Assembly (NCBI GenBank): GCA_016764955.1 | Contig: JAESQZ010000056.1 | Coordinates: forward strand, 1 to 45,610 | DNA length: 45,610 nucleotides | Direction of reading: 5' to 3' | Source of the DNA: Deltaproteobacteria bacterium | GTDB lineage: Bacteria > Myxococcota > UBA727 > JABDBI01 | Shown: positions 1 to 45,610 of the stretch, in pieces | Numbering within the stretch: position 1 is the first letter of the stretch | Layout: each line of letters opens with the position of its first letter | Made by a program: the position numbers and the translations under genes | Notes under the pieces: generated by a model | Database searches by the model: none | Told to the model about the DNA's origin: nothing | Seen by the model: only the letters and a program-made list of their open reading frames with translations

Positions 1-337
1 ATATTGCTTTCTCTTCCGTAATAATCTGCGTATTGACGCCAGAAACGTAAAGATAAATTGGATCCTTAAGCTTATTCCAGATTTTACCAATGCTAAGATG
101 AGCTGCTGGGTGATTCACGCCAACAAGCTTCTTTTTGTATTTTTTAGATCTAGCTTTGTCCATGTGTGAACAGTGTTTTAGTTGAATCCCTTCAGTAGAA
201 TACATATCTAATTTTAGACAATACCTTTTCTTTTGTTGTTCTAGAGGGCATTTACTACAGATTTTCTTTCTGTATTGTTTATTGTATGCTCTAAGTAATT
301 GTTGAATATGAGTTCCTGATTCAAACCAATCAATCAT
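1..337 (-). CDS. hypothetical Cys/His-rich protein, 3' end cut by window start
   Basis: ATG at 337-335 on the minus strand, open for 112 codons to position 1 (MIDWFESGTHIQQLLRAYNKQYRKKICSKCPLEQQKKRYCLKLDMYSTEGIQLKHCSH...). Missing from the ORF track because it has no stop inside the window. Lies 46 nt downstream of terL on the same strand. Confidence 0.45.
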   Translation of the reverse strand, partial: MIDWFESGTHIQQLLRAYNKQYRKKICSKCPLEQQKKRYCLKLDMYSTEGIQLKHCSHMDKARSKKYKKKLVGVNHPAAHLSIGKIWNKLKDPIYLYVSGVNTQIITEEKAI

Positions 338-383: not shown

Positions 384-2186
384 TTATTCTTCATCTTCAA
401 TTCCCCCTCCAACGTGTCCAACTGCTTTTCCTTGAGATATCATCCAGGCTATTCTTGCAAAGTTAGCAGCTTGTAGAGCATCGTCTGGAGTTCTCTTTTG
501 ATCCTCAATGAAATATCTTCTGTATGGTCTTCTTGCAGTCCCAATATTGATTAGTTCTACTTGCTCATTTGTGAACTGATCAATAATCCATTCTATCTTA
601 GAGTAATCAGCTCCAGGTAGTATGATCCTTGGAGTGAGTTGTCCGTTATTATCAAAGGGGATTGTTACTAGATTTTTGATTGCATCAATGGAATAGGTTC
701 TGTCAATTTCATATTTGTTATCTTGACGATATTTTATCATCTCTTTGATGTTTGGTCGTGGTCTTTCAGGCCTTGTAAGATAAACTAGTCTCAAACATCT
801 AGGTCCAAAGTATTTCATTAGAGATTCTACTTGATGAGTTCCTCCTCCTGAATCTACTACAGATTGAGTAGCTCCATAAGCATCAATGATATTTCTTACG
901 ATTTGATATTGTTCATCTGAAGTTTTTCCTGCTAGTTTAGCTGCAAATAGTAATCTAAACACTGGACCTTGATTATTGATACATTGCCAAACCCATACTA
1001 CAGTTTTGGGTCCTCCTCCCCAATCTGCTCCAACAAATACATCACCTAGAGAATGATCAACGTCTTGAGATGCAACAAAAGATAGATTCTTGTCTACTAG
1101 CTTTAGCATTATTTCTTCAGTGAATGGCATCTCATCTCCCTGAACCATTAAAGCTAGATTGTTTCTTGCAAATTCTAGAGGATCATAGTAGGGGTCTTTT
1201 TTGATTTGCCATTCAATGCTCCACTCTGGATTTACTTTGTAGTCCTCAATAGCTGATAGTATGGTAATTGGAATTCTAGGATTTTGTATTTGATCCAAAT
1301 GGTATCCATGTCTGTAAAAGTTCTTTGGAGCTGCTGCAACAAAATCTCCATCTAGTACATCTAATAGATAATCATCTTCAATTAATCCTTCATCATTAAA
1401 CTCCAATCCATCTCTCCAGGAGTTGTTTGAGTATCCCATAAAATTTTCTCCACGTCTAAATTTATACTCCATTTGATTTGTTGTCTGCCATAATTTATCA
1501 TATTTTGAACTCTTGAATCCCCCTACTCCTCCAATGAGTGTATCCCCCATTGTATCAGCTTGAGTTTGTCGTGCATTGTTGAATCCAGTCCAGTCTTCAT
1601 CTTGGCCTTCATCAATTACTATTCTCATCAATGATTTTCCTTGAGCATTTGACCAATTCTCTCCAGGTAACATCATGTCAATGATTGATTGAGTCTTCTT
1701 TATGATGACTCGATTCTGAGATCCTAGTCTGCTTATTCCAGCTACATGTTTTGATAGAGGTTCATGACCAAATATGTCCTGCCTGAATTTTGTTTCAGTA
1801 AATGTTTTGAGGTTTGCATCTTTGAAGTTGAAATAAGTTTGATCATAGTTGTTTCTAGTAGTAGCTCTGTATGCAAGCTCTGTTCCCATTGTAGTAGTCT
1901 TTCCCCATTGTCTAGCCCATAGTAGAAACTTGAATGGATGATCATCTTTTACAACTTTGAGTAGCATTGGCCTGAGTCGTAATCTGTTTTTGATTCCTTT
2001 GATTGCTCCTCTGCAGTATAGTTCCCACTCTACTCTATCTGTAGGTAATTCAGGTAAATCTTCAATGGTTCTTTGTGAATCAATTAGTAGAGCTCTTTCA
2101 GTTGTAGCAGTGAGTCTAGCTTCATCTAGTCTTTCATCATAACTTAGAGGTGCTGATTCTTTTAGGATGCTATCTTTAGATCTCAA
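384..2186 (-). CDS. terL: terminase large subunit
   Basis: 600 aa. Walker A-like WARQWGKTT and Walker B-like IVIDEGQD, plus C-terminal nuclease-type acidic motifs VGADWGGG and VVDSGGG. A small-subunit candidate lies directly upstream. Confidence 0.9.
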   Translation of the reverse strand: MRSKDSILKESAPLSYDERLDEARLTATTERALLIDSQRTIEDLPELPTDRVEWELYCRGAIKGIKNRLRLRPMLLKVVKDDHPFKFLLWARQWGKTTTMGTELAYRATTRNNYDQTYFNFKDANLKTFTETKFRQDIFGHEPLSKHVAGISRLGSQNRVIIKKTQSIIDMMLPGENWSNAQGKSLMRIVIDEGQDEDWTGFNNARQTQADTMGDTLIGGVGGFKSSKYDKLWQTTNQMEYKFRRGENFMGYSNNSWRDGLEFNDEGLIEDDYLLDVLDGDFVAAAPKNFYRHGYHLDQIQNPRIPITILSAIEDYKVNPEWSIEWQIKKDPYYDPLEFARNNLALMVQGDEMPFTEEIMLKLVDKNLSFVASQDVDHSLGDVFVGADWGGGPKTVVWVWQCINNQGPVFRLLFAAKLAGKTSDEQYQIVRNIIDAYGATQSVVDSGGGTHQVESLMKYFGPRCLRLVYLTRPERPRPNIKEMIKYRQDNKYEIDRTYSIDAIKNLVTIPFDNNGQLTPRIILPGADYSKIEWIIDQFTNEQVELINIGTARRPYRRYFIEDQKRTPDDALQAANFARIAWMISQGKAVGHVGGGIEDEE

Positions 2187-2187
2187 T

Positions 2188-2661
2188 TTATTGTTCCTGT
2201 GGAATTAGTGTAAGAATTCGGGGGTTTTGTTTTTCTTGTTCTGCTAGTTTGACTGCATCTCTGTAAACGTATTGAGCGGCTTCATCAAATGCTGAGAGGT
2301 ATGGGATTATTTCTTTGATTTCTTTTAGTATTCTAGCTGAGGCAATTGATTTAGTATCATCATCTTTAATTTTATCATACTGTTTCCATAGTTCATCTTT
2401 GATGTGTTCTAGTTCGTGTAGTCTATCTAGATGTCTTTCAGTTAGAGTTTTGGCTATCTCGTAGAGTCTGCTTGTAACTTCAGCAGATAGTTTTCCTCTT
2501 ACTCTCCAGTAAGTTGATTCAGAGATTGTCTCTCCAGTCTGTTCCTTTACAAATTCTAGTGATTTTGTAATACCAAACTTTCTGATCTTAGTCCAGATTA
2601 CAGCATATTCACTGTCATTTAGTGTCATATTTCTTACATAGCTTGACAGTGATTCTGCCAA
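2188..2661 (-). CDS. terminase small subunit candidate
   Basis: 157 aa, ending 1 nt before the terL start. Helical and charged, with a possible N-terminal HTH. The call is positional only. The track start is TTG; an in-frame ATG lies at 2628. Confidence 0.4.
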   Translation of the reverse strand: MAESLSSYVRNMTLNDSEYAVIWTKIRKFGITKSLEFVKEQTGETISESTYWRVRGKLSAEVTSRLYEIAKTLTERHLDRLHELEHIKDELWKQYDKIKDDDTKSIASARILKEIKEIIPYLSAFDEAAQYVYRDAVKLAEQEKQNPRILTLIPQEQ

Positions 2662-2681
2662 TAATGAATTATTTGGAACTA

Positions 2682-2888
2682 TTACTCACGATCGCTTGAG
2701 TCATGTCTATCCATTCTTTTGATATTGGCATCTCTTTGCATGTCTATCTCAAAGAGTGCTTCACTGAATGAGTTTTGTTCTTCTTCAGTTAGGTTCTGAG
2801 GTTTGAATAGAGATAATGCCTCTACTAGATTCCAGATTTGTTTTGTTATTTCTTGCATGTAGTGTGTTTTAATTTCATCATATAACAC
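2682..2888 (-). CDS. hypothetical protein
   Basis: 68-aa ORF on the coding strand with acidic, helical composition. Confidence 0.5.
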   Translation of the reverse strand: MLYDEIKTHYMQEITKQIWNLVEALSLFKPQNLTEEEQNSFSEALFEIDMQRDANIKRMDRHDSSDRE

Positions 2889-2920
2889 CTGGTCTTGTAG
2901 GCCAAACTAGAGTTTTAATA

Positions 2921-3085
2921 TTAAAATTTCTTCCATGTGATACCAAACCAATATCTGCAGTCTATACAGCATCTGTATTTTATTGTCTTTAGTGGCATCC
3001 TAGTTAGTTCATCCTCGTATACTTCCTCTCTACATGTGCTACAGATTGCTAACTTTCTCTTTTCTCTTCTTCTTGTTCTCCCCAC
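2921..3085 (-). CDS. small zinc-ribbon protein (below track cutoff)
   Basis: GTG start, 54 aa: MGRTRRREKRKLAICSTCREEVYEDELTRMPLKTIKYRCCIDCRYWFGITWKKF, with CxxC...CxxC. It fills an otherwise 240-nt gap. I checked the frame codon by codon. Confidence 0.35.
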   Translation of the reverse strand: MGRTRRREKRKLAICSTCREEVYEDELTRMPLKTIKYRCCIDCRYWFGITWKKF

Positions 3086-3128
3086 ATGGAGATTGTAATG
3101 GTTATTTGCAAAGGGAAGTTATTGAATA

Positions 3129-3323
3129 TTAGATTCTAGGTTTACTCTCATGTTTTCTTCTTCTAGCTTCAGCTCCTCTAGGAAGATTACTAACTATGAT
3201 TCTACAGCAAGGACAAATTCTCCCATCCCATTTGATGAATAATGAACAGGTTCTGCAAAAGGGATTTCCAATAAAGTATCGTTGTTTACCTTTGTAGTTT
3301 TTACAAATTCCTTTACAGGTCAT
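3129..3323 (-). CDS. zinc-ribbon protein
   Basis: 64 aa with CxxxC, CxxC and CPCC clusters and a basic C-terminus. Confidence 0.6.
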   Translation of the reverse strand: MTCKGICKNYKGKQRYFIGNPFCRTCSLFIKWDGRICPCCRIIVSNLPRGAEARRRKHESKPRI

Positions 3324-3325
3324 GA

Positions 3326-3592
3326 TTAGAACCTCAAAGCTTGTTTGTAGAATGATTTGTAATGAGTAAAGGTTTCACTTGTTATGAATTCTCTTATCCA
3401 CTGATAGATAGGATTCTGATAGTATCTATTCATGGCTCTCAAAACAGGACTATCATAATTTTCTTTTACCCATAGTTTAGCTGCAATTCTAGTTGATTCA
3501 TAAGATCTATATTTTGATGGTCTGCATCCGCAAGTTCTTTCCCCTCTAATTTGTTCAAAATCCTTTTTGCATGTAATACATTTGATTATCAT
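3326..3592 (-). CDS. hypothetical Cys-rich protein
   Basis: 88 aa with N-terminal CxxC...CGC. TAATG overlap with the upstream gene at 3592. Confidence 0.6.
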   Translation of the reverse strand: MIIKCITCKKDFEQIRGERTCGCRPSKYRSYESTRIAAKLWVKENYDSPVLRAMNRYYQNPIYQWIREFITSETFTHYKSFYKQALRF

Positions 3593-8652: not shown

Positions 8653-8747
8653 AACATTACTAAAACATACTTGCTTATAATCCTTTAGTTTAAACTAACG
8701 TTAGTTATAGGTAATGCTTAATAATCATTCAATACCACACTAATCAT

Positions 8748-8818
8748 GGGACTCAGGTGTACGGAGCATAATCAGACTGAAAACTTGAGAGGTTCGGGTT
8801 CAACTCCCGAGAGTTCCA
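8748..8818 (+). tRNA. tRNA-Phe(GAA)-like gene with an atypical D arm
   Basis: - Acceptor stem GGGACTC / GAGTTCC, 7 bp with one G-T pair.
- T arm TCGGG-TTCAACT-CCCGA.
- Anticodon loop CTGAAAA; its stem is TCAGA/CTTGA, 4 pairs plus an A-C mismatch.
- Short D arm: GTGT/GCAT with wobble pairs and loop ACGGA.
- No encoded CCA.
- TATA-like ttaataat about 22 nt upstream and a T5 run at 8826-8830.
- This is the only plus-strand gene in the window. Confidence 0.55.
8766..8785 (+). repeat. 20-bp direct repeat, copy 1 (inside the tRNA: D-stem 3' side to anticodon loop)
   Basis: gcaTaatcagactgaaaact. It matches 8860-8879 at 19 of 20 positions. Confidence 0.8.
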
Positions 8819-8859
8819 ACCGATAATTTTTATAAAAAATAGAAAAAAATTGTGCAAAA

Positions 8860-11978: not shown

Positions 11979-12172
11979 TATAGTTTCACTCCTAATTCAC
12001 TAGCTTTCCTAAATCCTGGACCATGAAATTTCCCTGAAGCTGGAACTTTACTAAATCCACAATTGGAGCATTTGTTGGTTATAATGTTGAAGGTTTTTCT
12101 TTCTGATAATCTGTATGATTTAGTTCTATGTTGAGTGCATCCAGTAGGGCAAAAAATTAAATTATCTTTCAT
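11978..12172 (-). CDS. zinc-ribbon protein
   Basis: 64 aa with CPTGC ... CSNCG. Confidence 0.6.
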   Translation of the reverse strand: MKDNLIFCPTGCTQHRTKSYRLSERKTFNIITNKCSNCGFSKVPASGKFHGPGFRKASELGVKL

Positions 12173-12597
12173 TGTGGTTTGACTCCTGCTTTTACTAGTG
12201 CATCAATGATATCATAGAAATCATCCCAAGTAATTTCATGTTCTTTTTTAGAATCTAGATAGAAAATTCCTTTTTTTCTACAATCATAATCATCAATTGT
12301 TATGTATTCATGTCCTGCAGCTCTAACCAACGGACCAAAAATAGTTCTAGCTTTGCGTGCTGCCTTTTCTCCATGTTTGTAATTTACTTCAATTACAATA
12401 TCTTTTCCATTGTTTCTTCTAAGGACTAAATCAAAATTATGATTTCTAACTTCTTGGTCTAGATGAATAAATTCTATAGGATCTATCATCCATTTGATAT
12501 TTACTTGAGATTCAATTCCTACACAGTCAATTAATCTAAGCATAATTTTTTTAGATAGATTTTCTCCTCTACCAATGAATCTAGAATTATCACTCAA
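12169..12597 (-). CDS. hypothetical protein, possible PD-(D/E)xK nuclease fold
   Basis: 142 aa with GRGENLSKKIM ... FDLVLRRNNGKDIVIEVNYKHG, read as a D...E..K-like pattern. Weak, by eye only. Confidence 0.55.
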   Translation of the reverse strand: MSDNSRFIGRGENLSKKIMLRLIDCVGIESQVNIKWMIDPIEFIHLDQEVRNHNFDLVLRRNNGKDIVIEVNYKHGEKAARKARTIFGPLVRAAGHEYITIDDYDCRKKGIFYLDSKKEHEITWDDFYDIIDALVKAGVKPQ

Positions 12598-12799
12598 TCT
12601 TATCAGCCTCCATGTGAATAATTTCAGTTAATTTTTTGCCATCTTGTTTAGAAACACAGTCAAGAATTAGTGAGATTAGTCCTGAGAGTGAGCCAATGCC
12701 CATAACGGAGAAATTCCTTTTTCTAGCTTGATGAAAGTCATGCCATTTGTCATATACAATATCTCCAATAGTTAGAGTAGTGAATCCAGGCTTAGGCAT
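12590..12799 (-). CDS. hypothetical protein
   Basis: 69-aa ORF on the coding strand. Confidence 0.55.
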   Translation of the reverse strand: MPKPGFTTLTIGDIVYDKWHDFHQARKRNFSVMGIGSLSGLISLILDCVSKQDGKKLTEIIHMEADKIE

Positions 12800-12882
12800 T
12801 ATTTTTCCTCCTCAAAATCGTCAAGAGTAGTTCCATCATGATCAGCATTATTGGTTTTTTTTCTCTTATCTAGAAAGCTCAT
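12799..12882 (-). CDS. micro-ORF, 27 aa
   Basis: MSFLDKRKKTNNADHDGTTLDDFEEEK. It exactly bridges two genes, with an ATGA overlap upstream and a TAATG overlap downstream. Confidence 0.3.
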   Translation of the reverse strand: MSFLDKRKKTNNADHDGTTLDDFEEEK

Positions 12883-21630: not shown

Positions 21631-21659
21631 TGAAAGATTTTGAGTTTATGTAATTAAGA

Positions 21660-21668
21660 GAACTATTC
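21660..21668 (-). promoter_or_regulatory. GAATAGTTC box
   Basis: Minus strand reads cGAATAGTTCtct, 29 nt from the ATG at 21630, with T/A-rich cttaattacataa between. Confidence 0.55.
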
Positions 21669-21944: not shown

Positions 21945-21960
21945 ATTTTAAATAATTAGA

Positions 21961-21968
21961 GAACTATC
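21961..21968 (-). promoter_or_regulatory. GAATAGTTC-like box
   Basis: Minus strand reads aGATAGTTCtct. It is 16 nt from the ATG at 21944 but 28 nt from the in-frame ATG at 21932. Confidence 0.45.
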
Positions 21969-21969
21969 T

Positions 21970-23736
21970 CTAAGAATCAACTAGAACGTTATCTGTATCA
22001 GCTAGAGAAGTTCCTGAAGCATTAACCAAAACACATCTTACAGTGATTGAATCTCCTGGACTAAAAGCTCCTTCTCTAATTACCTCAACTTTGTTTTCTA
22101 ATGCATTTAGATCATCAGAGGGAGGTTGGTTTCTAGAATATGAATTGGCTATAGTTGTAGTTCCTGTATCATAAATTGTATCAAAATATTCCTGAACACT
22201 TGATTGTAATCTCCAAGTTACTAGAGCTATCTCATCTCTTGTAGGTGAATCAGGATAAGTAACTTTGATTCGGATTTGTCCTGTTGCTGGAGAAGTGACT
22301 GTTAGAGTTGGTTTAGATGGTGTAGATAGTGTTCCAGTGGTATCACTAACAATAGTCGAGAATGGTCCATTCACTTGATTTTTTAGAATTCTTGCATGTC
22401 CGTAAAATAATGTACTTTCAACTTGTGATTCAGTTTCAAAAATTACATTAGTTTGGCCTGTCACTCCAACAGGTCGAGTAATTTTTGTACTTCCTCCCTG
22501 ACCTGTAAAGCTCCCATTGCCATCTACTGCATTTGATAAATTCCATTCAACCTCAGCTATGTTAATTCCTGCCTCAAGTGTTACTGTAAATTTTAATTTA
22601 GTTCCTACATTCTCAAAAACTACTGTAGGAGCTGCAAGAGCTGAAGTTGTAGCACTAGCTAGTATTGTACTAATTAGAGTCCCAAATTCATTTCTGACTT
22701 CAAAAATATAATCATGTAATGTATTTGGAGGAAGAAAATCATCATCATACGTGTTTGTTACTCCCGAAGATGGAGTATCATCTTTCACTACAGTCTCTAA
22801 AGGAATTCCCAAGTCTCTAATCAAAGTGAACCGTAATTGTTTTCCAGTAGGTTGAGTCCATGAAGCCCTTATTGTGTTAAAATCAAGTGCTGTAACTGAG
22901 AATCCTACATCTCCTGCATTGTATGAACCATCAGTGTTAGTTTGGAGTGGTCCAATATAATCAGAATTGCCAACGTCATTTTTTGCCCTTACCCAAAAAT
23001 AGTATGTAGTTCCTGCAGATAATCCATTTACAGTAACTTTGGTATCAGTCAGATTTTTTGTTGCAGCATCAGTGATAGGAGTATCTGGAACTCCGTTAGT
23101 TTCTGCAGCAGAGAGAGAATATTCCACATCATAAGTTAATGGAAGACTACCTATTGCTGAAGGATCCCATAAGATATCTATTGTAGTATCAGTGTGTCCA
23201 GATGAGACAACGTTTAGAGGAATAGTTGGAGCTAGCTCAGATTCATCGTTTTTTTTTGTAGTTCCAATGTTGATAGTAGATTGGTCTGTACTCCAAAATG
23301 ATATGTCAAGAAAATCATTAACTGCAGTAACTATCAAAGGACTACTTCCAATTCCTGAAACTATGGTTCCTCCAAGTGTAATGATTGGATCAGTTGAGCG
23401 AATGTGTAATCGTATAGTACATAATAGTAATGTTGGAATGTGTGCAAATGTTATAGTTGTATTTCCATCTACATTCCCTGTAAGTTGTCTATCACTGTGA
23501 ATTCCAAAATCAATTACTAGAGGATTTGTAATATCTCCAAGTTCTGAAATTTTTAATGGATTTGGATTTATGTTTGGAGATCCTCCGTCTACTGATTCAC
23601 TTCCAGAGCTTCCTATTCCTCTTGCAGATTCTGATCCTCCTATTTTTAATGATTCAAGTAAATCTCGATTGTTTTTCTTTTGGAATTTTATGATTCTTGA
23701 TTCGGTATTTGTTTGTCTAGTAGCTCGAGTTGACAA
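21970..23736 (-). CDS. tail fibre/adhesin with fibronectin type III-like domains
   Basis: 588 aa, TTG start. FN3 pattern at residues 169-264 (TIDILWDPS...TYDVEYS...LSAGTTYYFWVRAKNDVGNSDY), then a second similar unit (IRASWTQP...HDYIFEVRNEFG). Confidence 0.6.
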   Translation of the reverse strand: MSTRATRQTNTESRIIKFQKKNNRDLLESLKIGGSESARGIGSSGSESVDGGSPNINPNPLKISELGDITNPLVIDFGIHSDRQLTGNVDGNTTITFAHIPTLLLCTIRLHIRSTDPIITLGGTIVSGIGSSPLIVTAVNDFLDISFWSTDQSTINIGTTKKNDESELAPTIPLNVVSSGHTDTTIDILWDPSAIGSLPLTYDVEYSLSAAETNGVPDTPITDAATKNLTDTKVTVNGLSAGTTYYFWVRAKNDVGNSDYIGPLQTNTDGSYNAGDVGFSVTALDFNTIRASWTQPTGKQLRFTLIRDLGIPLETVVKDDTPSSGVTNTYDDDFLPPNTLHDYIFEVRNEFGTLISTILASATTSALAAPTVVFENVGTKLKFTVTLEAGINIAEVEWNLSNAVDGNGSFTGQGGSTKITRPVGVTGQTNVIFETESQVESTLFYGHARILKNQVNGPFSTIVSDTTGTLSTPSKPTLTVTSPATGQIRIKVTYPDSPTRDEIALVTWRLQSSVQEYFDTIYDTGTTTIANSYSRNQPPSDDLNALENKVEVIREGAFSPGDSITVRCVLVNASGTSLADTDNVLVDS

Positions 23737-37032: not shown

Positions 37033-37061
37033 GAATTAATTCTTGTTTGGAATAGTAAAAG

Positions 37062-37069
37062 GAACTATG
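37062..37069 (-). promoter_or_regulatory. GAATAGTTC-like box
   Basis: Minus strand reads tCATAGTTCcttttacta, 29 nt from the ATG at 37032. Confidence 0.45.
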
Positions 37070-40269: not shown

Positions 40270-40297
40270 GAAATATTTGAATTAATATAAAAAAAAG

Positions 40298-40306
40298 GAA
40301 CTATTC
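40298..40306 (-). promoter_or_regulatory. GAATAGTTC box
   Basis: Minus strand reads gGAATAGTTCcttttttttatatt, 28 nt from the ATG at 40269. Its TAG is the stop codon of the upstream gene. Confidence 0.55.
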
Positions 40307-40621: not shown

Positions 40622-40870
40622 ATTAGAATTCAGTATTAGTTTTGTAGACTCCAGGAGTTCCTTTTACTTTTCTAGTTACTGTTTTTCCTGCAGTTTTTAG
40701 TTTTGCTTCTTCTTGTGCAATGTGTTCTTCAAAATCTGCTTTGACTTTTGTTACATTCTCTTCAAAATTTTCTTCTCTAGTTTCTAATTCTTTTTTTGTG
40801 ACTCTAACTATTTAGCTTGAGTATTGAGTTTTTCTTCAATTTCTTGGAGTTCTTTTTCAGATTTACCCAT
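40622..40870 (-). pseudogene. frame-disrupted small coiled-coil gene
   Basis: - First piece: ATG at 40870 gives MGKSEKELQEIEEKLNTQAK and stops at 40808.
- Middle piece: the -1 frame continues as IVRVTKKELETREENFEENVTKVKSRF.
- Last piece: the original frame resumes as QKSKADFEEHIAQEEAKLKTAGKTVTRKVKGTPGVYKTNTEF and stops at 40622.
- All three pieces look like one protein, and both junctions fall in short A runs. Confidence 0.4.
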
Positions 40871-41999: not shown

Positions 42000-42133
42000 T
42001 ATTTTTTCCTCTCATCAGGATCAAAATCATGAAGTATCCAATTAGATTTGACATAATTCATTCTAATATCCATGCACTTGTTTATTGATTCCATTGTAGG
42101 ATGAGATTCCTGTAAACAATACTTACAAACCAT
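41999..42133 (-). CDS. micro-ORF, 44 aa
   Basis: MVCKYCLQESHPTMESINKCMDIRMNYVKSNWILHDFDPDERKK. Confidence 0.4.
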   Translation of the reverse strand: MVCKYCLQESHPTMESINKCMDIRMNYVKSNWILHDFDPDERKK

Positions 42134-42207
42134 TATTATCAGTCACCATGGTTCCTAATATTTTCTCAAGGATCAATAATTTTACTATTTACTGGCTGTT
42201 AAATTGA

Positions 42208-42468
42208 CTAAGCACATTCCAATCCTTTGATGTGTCTATTGAAATAAGCACCTTTAGAACCAGCTCCCTCAAAGGAATCAAAGTTTCTTCGTGTAATGTT
42301 ACAATAATTGTATGTTCTTCCAGGTAATTCGATACTCATAGTGTTATCCTCAAACCAATTTACAGTTCCAACAAATGAACTTGACTGAGTAAATGATTCT
42401 TCTCTGTCTGCTCCAATTAGTGCAGCAGTTAATACTTTGGATTTGAAATTGAAACTAGCTTTTTTTTT
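42208..42468 (-). CDS. -1 frame extension of 42429..42617 with no start codon at its 5' end
   Basis: 86 sense codons run from the A9 tract to the TAG at 42208-42210: KKKASFNFKSKVLTAALIGADREESFTQSSSFVGTVNWFEDNTMSIELPGRTYNYCNITRRNFDSFEGAGSKGAYFNRHIKGLECA. The frame is closed by a TAA (42475-42477) two codons before the tract. The first in-frame ATG appears only at 42339. Confidence 0.45.
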   Translation of the reverse strand, partial: KKKASFNFKSKVLTAALIGADREESFTQSSSFVGTVNWFEDNTMSIELPGRTYNYCNITRRNFDSFEGAGSKGAYFNRHIKGLECA

Positions 42469-42617
42469 GTTAGTTTAGTTAATGCTTGGAGTGCATCCTT
42501 GTAATTGAAATGTGTCCATCGGGCAATTGATGCAGCTATTGCTTCCATGTTTTCTCCAGGACCTGATTTTCCTCCATATTTTTTCAAGGCCTTTTTAGCT
42601 ACTACTTCTAAACTCAT
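42429..42617 (-). CDS. hypothetical 62-aa protein carrying a slippery tract near its 3' end
   Basis: The ORF ends ...LTKLTKKKLVSISNPKY. The codons aca aaa aaa aag contain A_AAA_AAG. Confidence 0.6.
   Translation of the reverse strand: MSLEVVAKKALKKYGGKSGPGENMEAIAASIARWTHFNYKDALQALTKLTKKKLVSISNPKY
42459..42465 (-). promoter_or_regulatory. candidate -1 ribosomal slippery heptamer A_AAA_AAG
   Basis: Lies within the T9 run at 42460-42468 (A9 on the minus strand), in the correct X_XXY_YYZ phase for the zero frame, followed by GCT. Confidence 0.45.
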
Positions 42618-42619
42618 GA

Positions 42620-43330
42620 TTAATTATCCTCCTCATCAGAGATTAATGTTACGGGTCCTAATGACTCATATTTCTTGATGAGTGATTTGTCATTGGATTT
42701 TATCTTAATTGATTTGATTCTGAGTTTGTCTAGTGGAATATCTCTATCCATTCTGACTTCAGCCTGATCAGCATAGTTTGCATCCATCCTCCCATCCTTT
42801 TTAGTTTCTGTTGTTTCACCTAAATCTCTAAAGAAGGGATCATAAGTGACAGCTTCTGCTCCATTAGAACGAACATCATCTCCATCATACTCTATTGTAA
42901 CTCCAGAATCATAAATGTCTGCCATCTCTTCATTTGGTGTTACTGCAGTGAATTGATAGCGGAATCTTTTCTCATCTTCACCTACTCCAGTAGTTCCGTT
43001 TTTTAGATATGCATCAAGTTCTGCAATAGCAGTTCCTCTAAAAAATGATGGAGAGTCTTTGAGCTGTTCTCTTGATAGTTTGTTTGTATTCTCAATGTCT
43101 GCCAAGAAATTATTGTACATTTTTCCAAGCTCTTTATTCTGTGATGCAATATCTTCCCAAATTGCTTTGAGGCCTTGAGGATTATCTCCAACTGAAACAA
43201 TTGTGTAATGATTCATTATTCCTCTGAGATTATCATCAACTGAAAATCCTTGAGGATCATAGTTATGTTTCTTGTACATTGCTGAAACTTGATCAGTCTC
43301 TTTGATGTGAGTGATTCCAGCTTCAATCAT
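42620..43330 (-). CDS. ADP-ribosyltransferase-like minor head protein candidate
   Basis: 236 aa from the first ATG. The spaced motifs SFFRG (R98), YQFTAVT (T128-T131) and DQAEV (Q189-x-E191) fit the R / S-T-S / Q-x-E pattern of C3/C2-type ARTs. Its position next to the portal matches phage MuF-associated toxin domains. By eye only. Confidence 0.35.
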   Translation of the reverse strand: MIEAGITHIKETDQVSAMYKKHNYDPQGFSVDDNLRGIMNHYTIVSVGDNPQGLKAIWEDIASQNKELGKMYNNFLADIENTNKLSREQLKDSPSFFRGTAIAELDAYLKNGTTGVGEDEKRFRYQFTAVTPNEEMADIYDSGVTIEYDGDDVRSNGAEAVTYDPFFRDLGETTETKKDGRMDANYADQAEVRMDRDIPLDKLRIKSIKIKSNDKSLIKKYESLGPVTLISDEEDN

Positions 43331-43624
43331 TGCTCTTGAATCTTCTTTAGTTTTATCGTAGGATTTCTTTATCTCCGTATTCCTGACTTTAGTTGCTTCT
43401 TTTCTTTTAGACTCATCTTTTGGAGCAGGAGAATCCTTCTTTGATGGTTCTTTTGATTCAGGATTATTTTTCTCTAAATCATCAAAGAAACTTTTGATTG
43501 CTTCTCCCTTATCTTCCCCTTCAGGAATGAAAATATGATGTCCTTTAGCTGTAATCCATTCTCCAGGTTTATCTTCAGCAGCATTTAGAGCCTTTAGTTG
43601 TCTAGCTAGTAGAGCTTTTTTTTT
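43331..43624 (-). CDS. start-less upstream continuation of 42620..43330, in the -1 frame of the portal gene
   Basis: 98 sense codons with no ATG, GTG or TTG and no stop: KKKALLARQLKALNAAEDKPGEWITAKGHHIFIPEGEDKGEAIKSFFDDLEKNNPESKEPSKKDSPAPKDESKRKEATKVRNTEIKKSYDKTKEDSRA. They run straight into MIEAG. The frame opens after a TAG at 43640-43642. I checked it triplet by triplet. Confidence 0.55.
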
Positions 43625-45345
43625 CCATCTAACTTTTGTCTAGTCTTATCTAGCTTCAATTTAGAGCCATCACCCAAATCAATACCCTTTCCATCTCCAG
43701 AACCTCCAGGAGTTGTCTCTGCTCCTTCCTCAACTTTATCTACATAGTTTTCAATTCCAGCTAGTTCTCCAAAGTCTTCATCTTTTAGTTGCTTTCTTGA
43801 ATCCAAGTCCATTACTGCCTCAATCTTATCAAACCATTCCTCTATTCTGAGATCATCCCAAGCTAGTTTGATTCTGAATTTCTTGAGGAACTCTGAATTC
43901 TTTTTGTCATTTGCGTATAGTAATCTAAACCATCTCTGATACCATTGTGAAGATATTTGTCGTCCAATCATGTTTCGTAATGGATTAATTACTGTAGATG
44001 TTGCAAGCTGAATCTTTCCAATCATTGTAGCTCTGTTTGATTGTGATTCATCATAGAACATTGATTGAGGTAATCCTATTGTACTAACACAATATCTCAA
44101 AAGAAATTCTACTAAATCTTTAAACTCTGTAACTTTTGGTTGGAAATCTACAGTATGATGTGTTACATCTTCAGGATTTTCAAGTAAAATATTTGGACCT
44201 CCTCTAACTAGATTACTTGCAATATCTTGATACTCTTCTTGTTTCTCTTTTTTTGTATTTCCTTGAGGCCTTACTGTCATGACATACATTCCAGCCCATG
44301 TAGCCTCAGCCATTGCAGGGAAGTTTACACCAATCATTTTTCTAATTACTCTAGATGCATCAAGCATCGGTAATGCCATTGAATCACCATATAACCAGGA
44401 GTTTCTTGTTTTAGCAGAGATAACAGGATTCCAAAGATAAATCATATCTCTAGCTGGAACTTGAGCGTATGCGTTTCTCCACTGTACAGATTTTAATCTC
44501 CATGTTTTAGGATCAGCTTGGATTATTCCCAAATCTCTAGCATGTGCAAATTTCATTGATGAGGGAATTTGTGGATAATGTTTGCCATCAATCTTTACAG
44601 GAGTATCATATCCAAAGATGAGAGCTGCTCTATTGAATAGATTAGTACATGAAATTAATGCTGTAATTTTTTCTTGAAATGATGTGTCAAGTTCTCCATC
44701 ATGATCACGATTTAGTTGGTTATCAATTGCAATTAGTGAATCTATGATTTTTTGAGCTTCTGGAGATTCCATATCTGCTTTGTCTTTTTTCTGATCACCT
44801 GAAGGATTGATTAGTTCTAGTTCAGGTTTGAATCCAGTTCCAACAATAAATTTAGTTAATGCCTCCATTAGTGGACCAATGAAGGTTTGTCTTGCCATTG
44901 CTTCTAATACAATGTAATCTAGATCCTGCATTGGATTGACAAAATATGAGAAAACCTCAAAGTTATTTCTTCGAGTTGTTACATCTGCTGCAGTTAATGG
45001 AGCTCCAGTTATAGGATCAGCAACAGATAATGACATTTGAGGAATCCAATTATCTACAACTTCTGGATCATACTGTGCTTCAGTGTTCATCCAAGATGCT
45101 TTGATTTGATGCATAGAGTTTAGGATTGGTCCTCCTGCATGTGAGATTTTTACATTAGTTGCTTTTCCTGATTGGTCTTTGATTATCTCTTTTACAAATG
45201 GTTTGAATCCATCAACTGAGAGAGAAGTGATTTGTTTTGCTTTTGCTTTAGGATTAAATGTTGGAATGGAAGTGTTAGGGATAATTTCAATTTTCTCAGG
45301 AACGTTTGGTTTCTCATGGTATGGAGTTCCTATTGGGGATTTCAT
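43606..45345 (-). CDS. portal protein candidate
   Basis: 579 aa. It is the largest head-module gene, upstream of the scaffold and capsid genes, and adjacent to terL if the window ends are joined. I read no diagnostic motif. Confidence 0.6.
   Translation of the reverse strand: MKSPIGTPYHEKPNVPEKIEIIPNTSIPTFNPKAKAKQITSLSVDGFKPFVKEIIKDQSGKATNVKISHAGGPILNSMHQIKASWMNTEAQYDPEVVDNWIPQMSLSVADPITGAPLTAADVTTRRNNFEVFSYFVNPMQDLDYIVLEAMARQTFIGPLMEALTKFIVGTGFKPELELINPSGDQKKDKADMESPEAQKIIDSLIAIDNQLNRDHDGELDTSFQEKITALISCTNLFNRAALIFGYDTPVKIDGKHYPQIPSSMKFAHARDLGIIQADPKTWRLKSVQWRNAYAQVPARDMIYLWNPVISAKTRNSWLYGDSMALPMLDASRVIRKMIGVNFPAMAEATWAGMYVMTVRPQGNTKKEKQEEYQDIASNLVRGGPNILLENPEDVTHHTVDFQPKVTEFKDLVEFLLRYCVSTIGLPQSMFYDESQSNRATMIGKIQLATSTVINPLRNMIGRQISSQWYQRWFRLLYANDKKNSEFLKKFRIKLAWDDLRIEEWFDKIEAVMDLDSRKQLKDEDFGELAGIENYVDKVEEGAETTPGGSGDGKGIDLGDGSKLKLDKTRQKLDGKKKLY
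43615..43621 (-). promoter_or_regulatory. candidate -1 ribosomal slippery heptamer A_AAA_AAG
   Basis: The portal frame reads gat gga aaa aaa aag ctc tac tag. The heptamer is in X_XXY_YYZ phase within the T9 run at 43617-43625, followed by GCT as at the other site. Confidence 0.5.
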
Positions 45346-45503: not shown

Positions 45504-45610
45504 TGGAATAATTTATGGAAGTATCTTAAAGAGAAATAATACAATCATTTTAACGATTAATCATAGGATGGAATCCCATGTGTTGCATTATCTTCTTTTT
45601 GTATTTTTTA

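Follow-up and report, generated by a model that had tools for sequence, protein, structure and literature searches.

A run of nine adenines as a probable programmed -1 recoding site in front of a KTSC domain

Introduction

How is a protein domain expressed that lies in a reading frame without a start codon in front of it? This question is raised by a locus in contig JAESQZ010000056.1, which is public at NCBI as part of a metagenome-assembled genome (MAG) named Deltaproteobacteria bacterium. The whole stretch of 45,610 nucleotides (nt) analysed here is called the window. Its genes are all on the minus strand, to which the features below belong unless the plus strand is given, and its GC content is about 34%. 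At the locus, called site 2, a short open reading frame (ORF) of 62 amino acids (aa), ORF62, runs through nine consecutive adenines (A9) followed by GCT, and a KTSC domain (PF13619) follows in the -1 frame. Judged from the comparisons described below, site 2 is very probably a site of programmed -1 recoding of some kind, at which a short and a long isoform would be made from one start. The more specific claim, that recoding at site 2 is transcriptional and caused by slippage of RNA polymerase, has in our estimate an even chance of being correct.

The reading frames at site 2

ORF62 (42429..42617) has its own ATG, and a Shine-Dalgarno (SD)-like sequence, GAGGAGGA, is located 9 nt upstream of it (42627..42634). 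The gene ends with ...gca tta act aaa cta aca aaa aaa aag cta gtt tca att tca aat cca aag tat taa. The slip site comprises A9 (42460..42468) and GCT, together 42457..42468, and is read in the 0 frame as acA AAA AAA AAG CTa. An earlier reading made from the sequence alone (the sequence-only reading) had noted an in-phase A_AAA_AAG heptamer within an A9 run in front of GCT, and this is indeed found at 42468..42460. It had also described the -1 frame correctly. This frame reads TAA act aac AAA AAA AAA gct agt ttc and so on, is closed by the TAA two codons before the run, remains uninterrupted after the run for 83 codons up to a TAG (42210..42208; the extension covers 42208..42459), and has its first ATG, GTG, or TTG at 42339. 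The third frame has an immediate stop. Without the -1 reading, a gap of 295 nt would separate ORF62 from the next gene (start at 42133), again as described before.

ORF62 and the extension together would give a hypothetical 136-aa product with the junction ...LTKLTKKK/ASFNFK.... The peptide of the expected fusion is LTKLTKKKASFNFKSKVL at site 2 and KLDGKKKALLARQLK at site 1, the second slip site of the window. The peptide following the run, F.F..K.L.AA, is kept in relatives, and the 40 codons between the run and Met94, which is encoded by the ATG at 42339, are conserved as protein. In the public annotation of the contig, the -1 frame of site 2 contains a single 43-aa ORF, a "KTSC domain-containing protein" (P0013, 42208..42339) in the same frame that starts at Met94.

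The -1 frame encodes a predicted KTSC domain

The 136-aa fusion matches PF13619 with 40.8 bits (cut-off 25), its residues 90-132 corresponding to profile positions 13-56, and the KTSC domain extends over approximately residues 70-134 (42217..42411). Met94 is located inside the Pfam match, with profile positions 13-20 upstream of it. The fusion was modelled with AlphaFold based on an alignment with 19 homologs, resulting in a mean predicted local distance difference test (pLDDT) score of 80. In the model, the N-terminal domain consists of three helices between residues 3 and 54 (pLDDT about 80-88), the linker of residues 56-69 straight after the lysine run is disordered, and the KTSC part has pLDDT values above 90 with strands at residues 74-77, 85-89, 93-98, and 101-106. 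Foldseek aligned it with 4RGI and 7X8C over 64-65 columns at a root-mean-square deviation of 2.0-2.1 and template modelling (TM) scores, normalised to the targets, of 0.74-0.75. According to the Pfam match and the model, the -1 frame of site 2 is real coding sequence for a complete KTSC domain that starts upstream of the only ATG. Because the strands 74-77 and 85-89, two of the four, precede Met94, the 43-aa ORF is a truncated reading.

The fusion resembles the known KTSC proteins (PF13619; 4RGI, 7X8C) in passing the Pfam threshold and in its matching fold, but it differs from them by the N-terminal F.F..K.L.AA linker and by two conserved cysteines, and its KTSC domain is reached by a frame shift and not encoded by a small stand-alone gene. 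KTSC domains have been proposed to bind DNA or RNA (PMC9503650, PMC8541194), and that of the fusion is a predicted nucleic-acid-binding domain.

The two cysteines are near-invariant in this KTSC subfamily (YxYC...EC) and correspond to residues 106 and 135 of the fusion (approximately 42303..42301 and 42216..42214). They are absent in the more distant KTSC proteins P0018 and P0019. The pair might form a disulfide, a metal contact, or a contact between subunits.

Homologous junctions in related loci

Relatives of the locus were collected by portal-based scans of IMG/VR and by a scan of JGI metagenomes with an alignment of the KTSC extension, followed by a profile protein search with subsequent contig look-ups and a scan of GTDB genomes. 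A word-indexed protein search with the 136-aa fusion as query gave no match, and therefore a profile built from three relatives was needed. Scanning IMG/VR with a 16-nt DNA pattern yielded chance matches only, with the exception of L001. The junctions derive from IMG/VR, JGI, ENA, Logan, and GenBank whole-genome shotgun entries that were produced with several assemblers. Thirteen junctions were compared, namely sites 1 and 2 of the window and one each in L001, L110, L121, L124, L126-L130, L132, and L137. The profiling of flanks and runs and the tests for stimulators cover twelve of them, the thirteenth (L137) having been found later.

Exactly nine adenines are present at all 13 junctions, other run lengths at none, and the downstream module is in the -1 frame at 12 of the 13. 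At site 1 the junction reads ggA AAA AAA AAG ctc tac tag, compared to acA AAA AAA AAG cta at site 2. In L001 it is acc AAA AAA AAA gct taa, and A9 is similarly placed in L121 (ggt A9 gct taa), L126 (act A9 gct tga), L127 (gct A9 gct tga), L128 (ggt A9 gct tag), and L129 (agt A9 gct taa). The remaining shifted junctions are tcA AAA AAA AAc taa in L124, ttA AAA AAA AAc tag in L130, ttA AAA AAA AAc aac aat ttt tag in L132, and tcA AAA AAA AAg taa in L137. The -1 frame is closed at all twelve shifted junctions by a stop at most two codons from the run or overlapping it, and the 0 frame stops 0-3 codons past the run at 11 of the 12. At site 2 and in L001, L121, L124, L128, L129, and L132, the stretch from the closing stop to the domain lacks a start codon. 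The sequence-only reading had argued that two identical A9-GCT sequences at the openings of start-less -1 frames are hard to put down to chance and had asked for a comparison of the tract and the -1 ORF in homologous genomes. The argument is confirmed by this comparison, since A9 is found together with a -1 frame at 12 diverged junctions and the -1 frame carries the downstream module there.

The exception is L110, in which the portal-like gene, a coiled-coil linker, and the KTSC domain are a single ORF with A9 in frame (caa aaa aaa agc tca), and in which the other two frames stop within 2-4 codons. L110 comes from the same metagenome as L001. It differs in the upstream phase, not in the length of the run.

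Upstream of the A9-KTSC junction, a portal-like gene family is found in L001, L110, L121, L124, and L126-L129. Module-less portal relatives, which have no KTSC domain, contain neither the A run nor the extension. In L132, the -1 reading behind A9 is 470 aa long and comprises the extension, a domain similar to the 236-aa ORF of the window, an ORF62-like segment, and the KTSC domain. The same locus encodes P0021 (324 aa), which consists of the 236-like domain, the ORF62-like segment, and KTSC in a single uninterrupted ORF and, at the position at which the window has A9, reads ...ggc aaa cac aag gaa cta gaa acc ttc tca ttt. BLASTP aligns the 136-aa fusion with P0021 in one high-scoring segment pair (residues 2-132, E 1e-22) that crosses the junction. 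The frame extension previously suggested for site 2 is thus borne out both by the alignment across the junction and by a KTSC domain that starts before the only ATG. An exhaustive HMMER search with ORF62 also detected free-standing homologs of 56-74 aa (P0023-P0025) that have neither an A run nor a KTSC domain. Because of the free-standing P0023-P0025 and the fused P0021, both the short and the long product have a precedent.

A second donor family was seen in L130, L132, and L137. It is a protein of about 254 aa that ends with CxxCGELKK and is unrelated to the portal-like gene, and the A9 behind it is located at 3563..3571 in L132, 196..204 in L130, and 742..750 in L137. The idea that the 254-aa gene of L132 is a relative of the 447-aa gene of the window was rejected, as BLASTP found no similarity. 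In addition, a distant portal homolog with 29% identity is present in L136 (JAJCXK010000081.1, a 103-kb contig of a Nitrosopumilus sp. MAG; 1523..3288). There, the KTSC gene is in the -1 frame behind the portal homolog, its TTG overlaps the TGA of the portal gene (gTTTGA), and there is no A run (RKPKSFSFDDE). L136 shows an alternative way to express a KTSC module, namely by re-initiation.

Nine adenines are conserved irrespective of the codon phase

If the 12 profiled junctions are anchored on the run, its nine positions are invariant, while the median ungapped identity of the 60 nucleotides around it is at the random level (28%). The run occurs in three phases (AAA AAA AAA G, xxA AAA AAA AAN, and xAA AAA AAA Axx), in which it encodes KKK-A, KK-S, and QKK-S, respectively. 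Because the run is invariant across three phases amid random-level flanks, it is the nine consecutive adenines that are selected and not the lysine codons or a heptamer. GCT follows the run at 9 of the 12 profiled sites, GTA at the thirteenth (L137). The conserved GCT encodes alanine in one frame arrangement and contributes to Ser-Leu in another.

Long A runs are otherwise scarce. In the window, A8-mers are depleted (8 observed compared to 29 +/- 7 expected), and the coding strand contains 27 A7, one A8, and three A9 runs. A census of the module-bearing loci (47.8 kb) gave 25 A7, four A8, ten A9, and no A10 or longer runs; in the module-less portal relatives (79.5 kb) there are 38 A7, 12 A8, one A9, and again no A10 or longer runs. 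Each of the 10 related module-bearing loci in the census has one A9, always at the junction, and L137 was later added as the eleventh. Further inside the same protein of L130, six lysines are encoded by AAA AAG AAA AAG AAG AAG, so that the run is broken up where a shift is not needed.

The third A9 of the window (23249..23257) is read in frame (acA AAA AAA AAC gat) inside a 588-aa fn3-containing tail-type gene (ORF 21970..23736), in agreement with the sequence-only reading, and is the only other run of at least eight adenines inside a long ORF. It is located in a linker immediately in front of the fn3 domain. Past the run, the -1 frame has a single codon before a stop (KKKR*) and the +1 frame has four, so that slippage, if it occurs, would lead to an N-terminal fragment of about 166 aa. 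The match with the only relative in IMG/VR is limited to the generic fn3 domain, and the run is in the unaligned linker.

The only A8 of the coding strand (12855..12862) is outside long ORFs, 17 nt past the stop of a 390-aa MT-A70 methyltransferase-like gene. It precedes a 142-aa ORF (12169..12597), and the only ATG-initiated ORF found between the two genes is about 69 aa long (start at 12799).

Transcriptional or ribosomal recoding

Under standard decoding, site 2 would give the 62-aa helical protein. In a fraction of the expression events the frame would shift at A9 into the -1 frame, resulting in a 136-aa protein composed of the helical domain, a flexible lysine-rich linker, and the KTSC domain. 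In the transcriptional version, RNA polymerase would encounter a run that is as long as its RNA-DNA hybrid, the transcript would realign and gain one A, and the A10 mRNA would then be read normally by the ribosome. In vivo, bacterial RNA polymerase slips efficiently on nine A or T, mostly adding bases, and its hybrid has 9-10 bp (PMC5009743, PMC1088944).

Several findings point to RNA polymerase. All 12 shifted sites need a change in the same direction, the addition of one A. The invariant length of the run equals the length of the RNA-DNA hybrid, irrespective of the phase, and L110 keeps A9 although it is in frame. As expected of transcriptional slippage, the run has at least nine bases, it is conserved regardless of phase, and one added base gives a contiguous bona fide domain.

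The most serious alternative is slippage by the ribosome, either by -1 frameshifting at A_AAA_AAG or by sliding on the iterated AAA codons. The mRNA would then keep A9 and the tandem tRNA-Lys would slip back by one base, leading to the same 136-aa product. The heptamer A_AAA_AAG is in phase at both sites of the window, and A_AAA_AAA, A_AAA_AAC, or A_AAA_AAG at 12 of 12 shifted sites. A_AAA_AAG belongs to the most efficient bacterial motifs (PMC4066793), ribosome sliding on homopolymeric A is known (PMC4363877), and the only documented archaeal -1 programmed ribosomal frameshifting (PRF), a cellular case, happens on A-AAA-AAT (PMC8211752). The position of the 0-frame stop, within 0-3 codons of the run at 11 of the 12 sites, would also suit a ribosomal event. 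However, a heptamer would be enough for the ribosome, and it is hard to see why two or three extra adenines on the 5' side should be invariant while the adjoining codons vary and the phase of the run is not conserved. Apart from the in-phase heptamer, the elements known from -1 PRF were not found. There is no conserved structure downstream, neither hairpin nor pseudoknot (the folds of the 70 nt downstream have z-scores from -1.3 to +1.2), hairpins upstream are present at only 3 of the 12 junctions tested, a shared upstream SD sequence was not detected, and a search of Rfam revealed no element. The sequence-only reading had framed the site as ribosomal. Its heptamer is there and in phase, but a length of nine across three phases without a stimulator points at least as strongly to RNA polymerase. 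Within recoding, we regard transcriptional slippage as most likely, and the ribosomal alternative as the main rival, though less likely.

Some observations weigh against transcriptional slippage or against recoding as a whole. Every shifted A9 holds an in-phase A_AAA_AAN heptamer, which is A_AAA_AAG at both sites of the window, and because the same protein results from either process, ribosomal and transcriptional slippage are inseparable by sequence. At site 2 the 0 frame continues for 9 codons past the run, compared to 0-3 codons at the other shifted sites. Efficient slippage at the third A9 would truncate a share of the tail-type protein, which implies either a modest efficiency or a further programmed site. 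In the literature, we did not find slippage of archaeal RNA polymerase on A9 documented; one relative belongs to a Nitrosopumilus MAG. Finally, the analysis shows that both frames are coding, that the site is conserved, and that fused as well as free-standing short homologs exist, and from this we infer the occurrence and efficiency of slippage, the slipping enzyme, and the role of KTSC in the virion.

More broadly, A9, together with the F.F..K.L.AA linker, appears to act as a portable and reusable joint between modules. In the window, it would also tie the portal-like protein to a 331-aa extension, and in the relatives it would tie the portal-like or the 254-aa protein either to KTSC directly or to an extension-ORF62-KTSC module. 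The role of such a joint would be to set a sub-stoichiometric ratio of extended to plain protein. In most relatives, KTSC would be placed on the C-terminus of the portal-like protein via A9 and a flexible or coiled-coil linker, in a minority of the subunits and presumably near the packaged DNA. In its widest form, this reading holds that a lineage of uncultured tailed viruses, possibly thaumarchaeal, employs A9 as a portable cassette for slippage of RNA polymerase, by which KTSC or the 331-aa extension is attached sub-stoichiometrically to portal-like and other head-module proteins, with two tandem joints in the window and a third A9 that leads to a truncated tail isoform. We propose this tentatively and rate it at somewhat less than an even chance.

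Alternatives to recoding

The run could also vary at the DNA level by replication slippage, so that A9 is the off and A10 the on state within a population. In favour of this, homopolymer tracts mutate at high rates and another run of this virus is polymorphic (A7/A8), but the length does not vary at any of the 13 sites or among the assemblies of this virus, A10 is present in no locus, and the lone in-frame case (L110) differs by its upstream phase and not by its length. Such phase variation is therefore very unlikely.

If there were no fusion, the KTSC protein would be made alone, with translation beginning either at the ATG at 42339 (43 aa) or at a non-canonical codon close to the run, and the run would be incidental. 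This is what the NCBI annotation amounts to, and the sequence-only reading had listed the 43-aa micro-ORF as a caveat. A TTG is located after the run in L126 and L127 and before it in L130, and the run-less KTSC gene of L136 starts at a TTG that overlaps the stop of the portal gene. However, the 43-aa product would lack part of the fold, namely two of the four strands and the Pfam profile positions 1-20, there is no start codon in front of the domain at site 2 and the six relatives listed above, the codons from the run to Met94 are conserved as protein, independent initiation is not a conserved feature, and the invariant A9 would be left unexplained. We consider separate expression highly improbable.

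Another caveat raised before was a systematic undercall of the homopolymer, in which case the true run would be A10 and ORF62-KTSC a plain fused ORF. Homopolymers are prone to errors, and at 40791..40797 the window has A7 where an ENA copy of the same virus has A8. Nevertheless, the assemblies come from at least five sources and show A9 at every one of the 13 junctions, and those of this virus agree on it (the window, ENA, and Logan copies at site 1, the window and ENA copies at site 2). A systematic undercall is untenable because L001 (out of frame) and L110 (in frame) share a metagenome, and one of them would be broken by the correction. An artefact of assembly or sequencing has thus hardly any probability left, and miscalling as well as phase variation can be regarded as essentially excluded.

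Equally implausible is a decaying fusion gene (a pseudogene with a 1-nt deletion) or an origin of the two A9GCT copies as target-site duplications of a 1156-bp insertion, for although P0021 is an in-frame fusion and relatives join the portal-like gene straight to KTSC, so that the window resembles such a locus with an extension-236-ORF62 segment between two repeats, all 83 codons of the -1 frame are free of interruptions and encode a fold predicted with high confidence, the same "break" in the same direction occurs at 12 diverged junctions, and stops or frameshifts in the -1 ORF of close relatives were not seen. The target-site duplication was rejected because A9 is also present at the junctions of relatives without the insertion.

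The A7/A8 difference mentioned above is located in an 82-aa gene (40623..40870) that is intact in the ENA copy (GAG and A8), while the window has a TAG at 40810..40808 (G-to-T) and A7. Because of the nonsense single-nucleotide polymorphism (SNP) 13 nt away, the A7/A8 difference looks like real strain variation. The 82-aa gene of the window looks like a strain-level pseudogene, and real changes of A runs would then occur in this virus while both A9 sites hold.

Comparison with known recoding systems

Slippage on homopolymers is exploited by dnaX of Thermus thermophilus and by mxiE/spa13 of Shigella, while AT-rich genomes avoid such runs elsewhere (PMC5009743, PMC1088944). Thermus dnaX (tau/gamma) shares with the sites described here a homopolymer of 9 nt, the absence of a stimulatory structure, and products with a common N-terminus (PMC5009743). 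It has nearby stops in the non-zero frames and follows the same logic as the layout of L110. However, the Thermus genome encodes the long form, which is truncated by slippage, whereas slippage would be needed for the long form at the sites of the window. In addition, dnaX is a cellular replicase gene, whereas here a gene of a viral head module is concerned and slippage is deduced from sequence. The arrangement of mxiE/spa13 in Shigella flexneri is closer to the shifted sites, because the run ends a short ORF and one added base fuses a start-less downstream ORF to it. The long product of spa13 is a minority of 25-30% (PMC5009743, PMC1088944). In Shigella, T or A runs are used at single sites in a regulator or secretion gene, whereas the putative cassette here is reused at many domain junctions.

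The ribosomal sites of Escherichia coli dnaX and of IS911/IS1-type elements (A_AAA_AAG / A_AAA_AAC) have the same in-phase heptamer and likewise generate an alternative C-terminus (PMC4066793). They need an SD sequence upstream and/or a hairpin downstream and conserve the heptamer only, whereas here nine adenines are conserved in variable phase. The G/GT genes of phage lambda and their counterparts, including those of the haloarchaeal HVTV-1 and HCTV-1/2/5, are alike in that a -1 shift produces a minor, C-terminally extended isoform of a morphogenesis protein at a set ratio (PMC5009743, PMC8211752). The difference is that portal-like and small head-module genes are concerned here, with KTSC as payload, A9 instead of a heptamer, and two tandem sites. 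The location is different, too. G/GT-type frameshifts occur in the two ORFs that separate the major tail gene from the tape measure gene, whereas site 2 is found a short distance downstream of the terminase, with the portal-like gene on one side and the scaffold/capsid-side genes on the other. A full-text search of the literature revealed no description of recoding at portal genes, of KTSC in phages, or of transcriptional slippage in phage head genes.

For the annotation this means that a 136-aa ORF62-KTSC protein and an extended portal-like protein of about 910 aa are probably what is really produced, and that the 10 related loci whose junctions are shifted need correcting in the same way. 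The 13 natural variants, the in-frame A9 among them, the run-less in-frame fusion, and re-initiation make up a recoding family that offers a comparative series on how isoform ratios are set. The arrangement suggests a portal-like protein of which a minority carries a C-terminal nucleic-acid-binding appendage. If the reading as a slippage cassette is true, this would be the first programmed transcriptional slippage in morphogenesis genes of tailed double-stranded DNA viruses, and also the first in a virus of archaea, should the host be archaeal. A thaumarchaeal host would also extend the very short list of archaeal frame-shifting events (PMC8211752).

Site 1 and the portal-like gene

Site 1 (A9 at 43616..43624; with GCT, 43613..43624) has the sequence AAAAAAAAAGCT, which is identical to the 12-mer of site 2, and is located 1156 nt upstream of it at the end of a 579-aa portal-like gene (43606..45345), whose product would be the 0-frame protein of site 1. 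The -1 extension (42620..43615) comprises 95 start-less codons and the annotated 236-aa ORF (42620..43330) in the same frame throughout, together 331 aa, and 275 nt of site 1 are unannotated in the public record. The extension GEWITAKGHHIFIPEG is homologous to the -1 extension behind A9 in L132 (QWITVNGVHIPIKKG). The AlphaFold model of the extension with the 236-aa ORF, calculated from a 2-sequence alignment, has a mean pLDDT of 46.

The gene for the large terminase subunit (phrog_675, 1e-22) is found about 160 nt upstream of the 579-aa gene. A small ORF is located between them, where a 111-aa gene is called in the ENA copy. Profile searches with the 579-aa protein gave no match in Pfam, PHROGs, NCBIfam, or PDB, and the same searches were empty for the 375-aa gene at the capsid position, the 447-aa gene, and the 236-aa ORF. 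Because the 579-aa protein has no match to a family or structure, its identity as portal is based on gene order only.

The virus and its host

The virus of the window matches no GenBank phage at the nucleotide or protein level. By look-up of exact proteins it was found again in two other assemblies, the ENA scaffold ERZ23499281 with 99.9% identity and a Logan contig from SRR5988120 with 100% identity. The ENA copy has A9 at site 1 and site 2, the Logan copy has A9 at site 1 and ends before site 2. Between the window and the ENA copy there are 5 SNPs and one indel, with zero differences within 42200-43700.

In the ENA scaffold, the low-coordinate region of the window is joined directly to its high-coordinate end, and bases 1..127 of the window are absent from this join. 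A 19-nt repeat, TAAAAAATACAAAAAGAAG (minus strand), is present at 45592..45610 and 128..146. The window probably represents a complete, circularly closed or permuted genome with a size of about 45.46 kb and an odd end of 127 nt. ARAGORN predicts a tRNA-Phe (GAA) at 8747..8821 (+), on the strand opposite to every gene, which may be a false positive.

The window and its relatives were binned with Deltaproteobacteria, Balneolaceae, and Nitrosopumilus, and only the last of these is a long contig. A Pfam search of the ORFs on the replication side revealed no host-diagnostic family. The presence of L136 in a Nitrosopumilus MAG hints at ammonia-oxidising archaea as hosts of the lineage.

The motif ATARTTCY is enriched in the window, with 34 occurrences compared to 13.6 +/- 3.7 expected (for example at 40297..40304, 37061..37068, 21960..21967, and 21659..21666 on the minus strand). 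It is often found about 28-36 nt upstream of starts that follow intergenic gaps, with a T/A-rich box after it. In front of the 447-aa gene, the arrangement is AATAGTTCC TTTTTTTT ATATTA, and similar TTCTTATAT boxes are located about 25 nt before the ATG that follows the portal-like gene in L112-L116. From its sequence context, the ATARTTCY element appears promoter-like and is possibly of the archaeal TATA type with short leaders.

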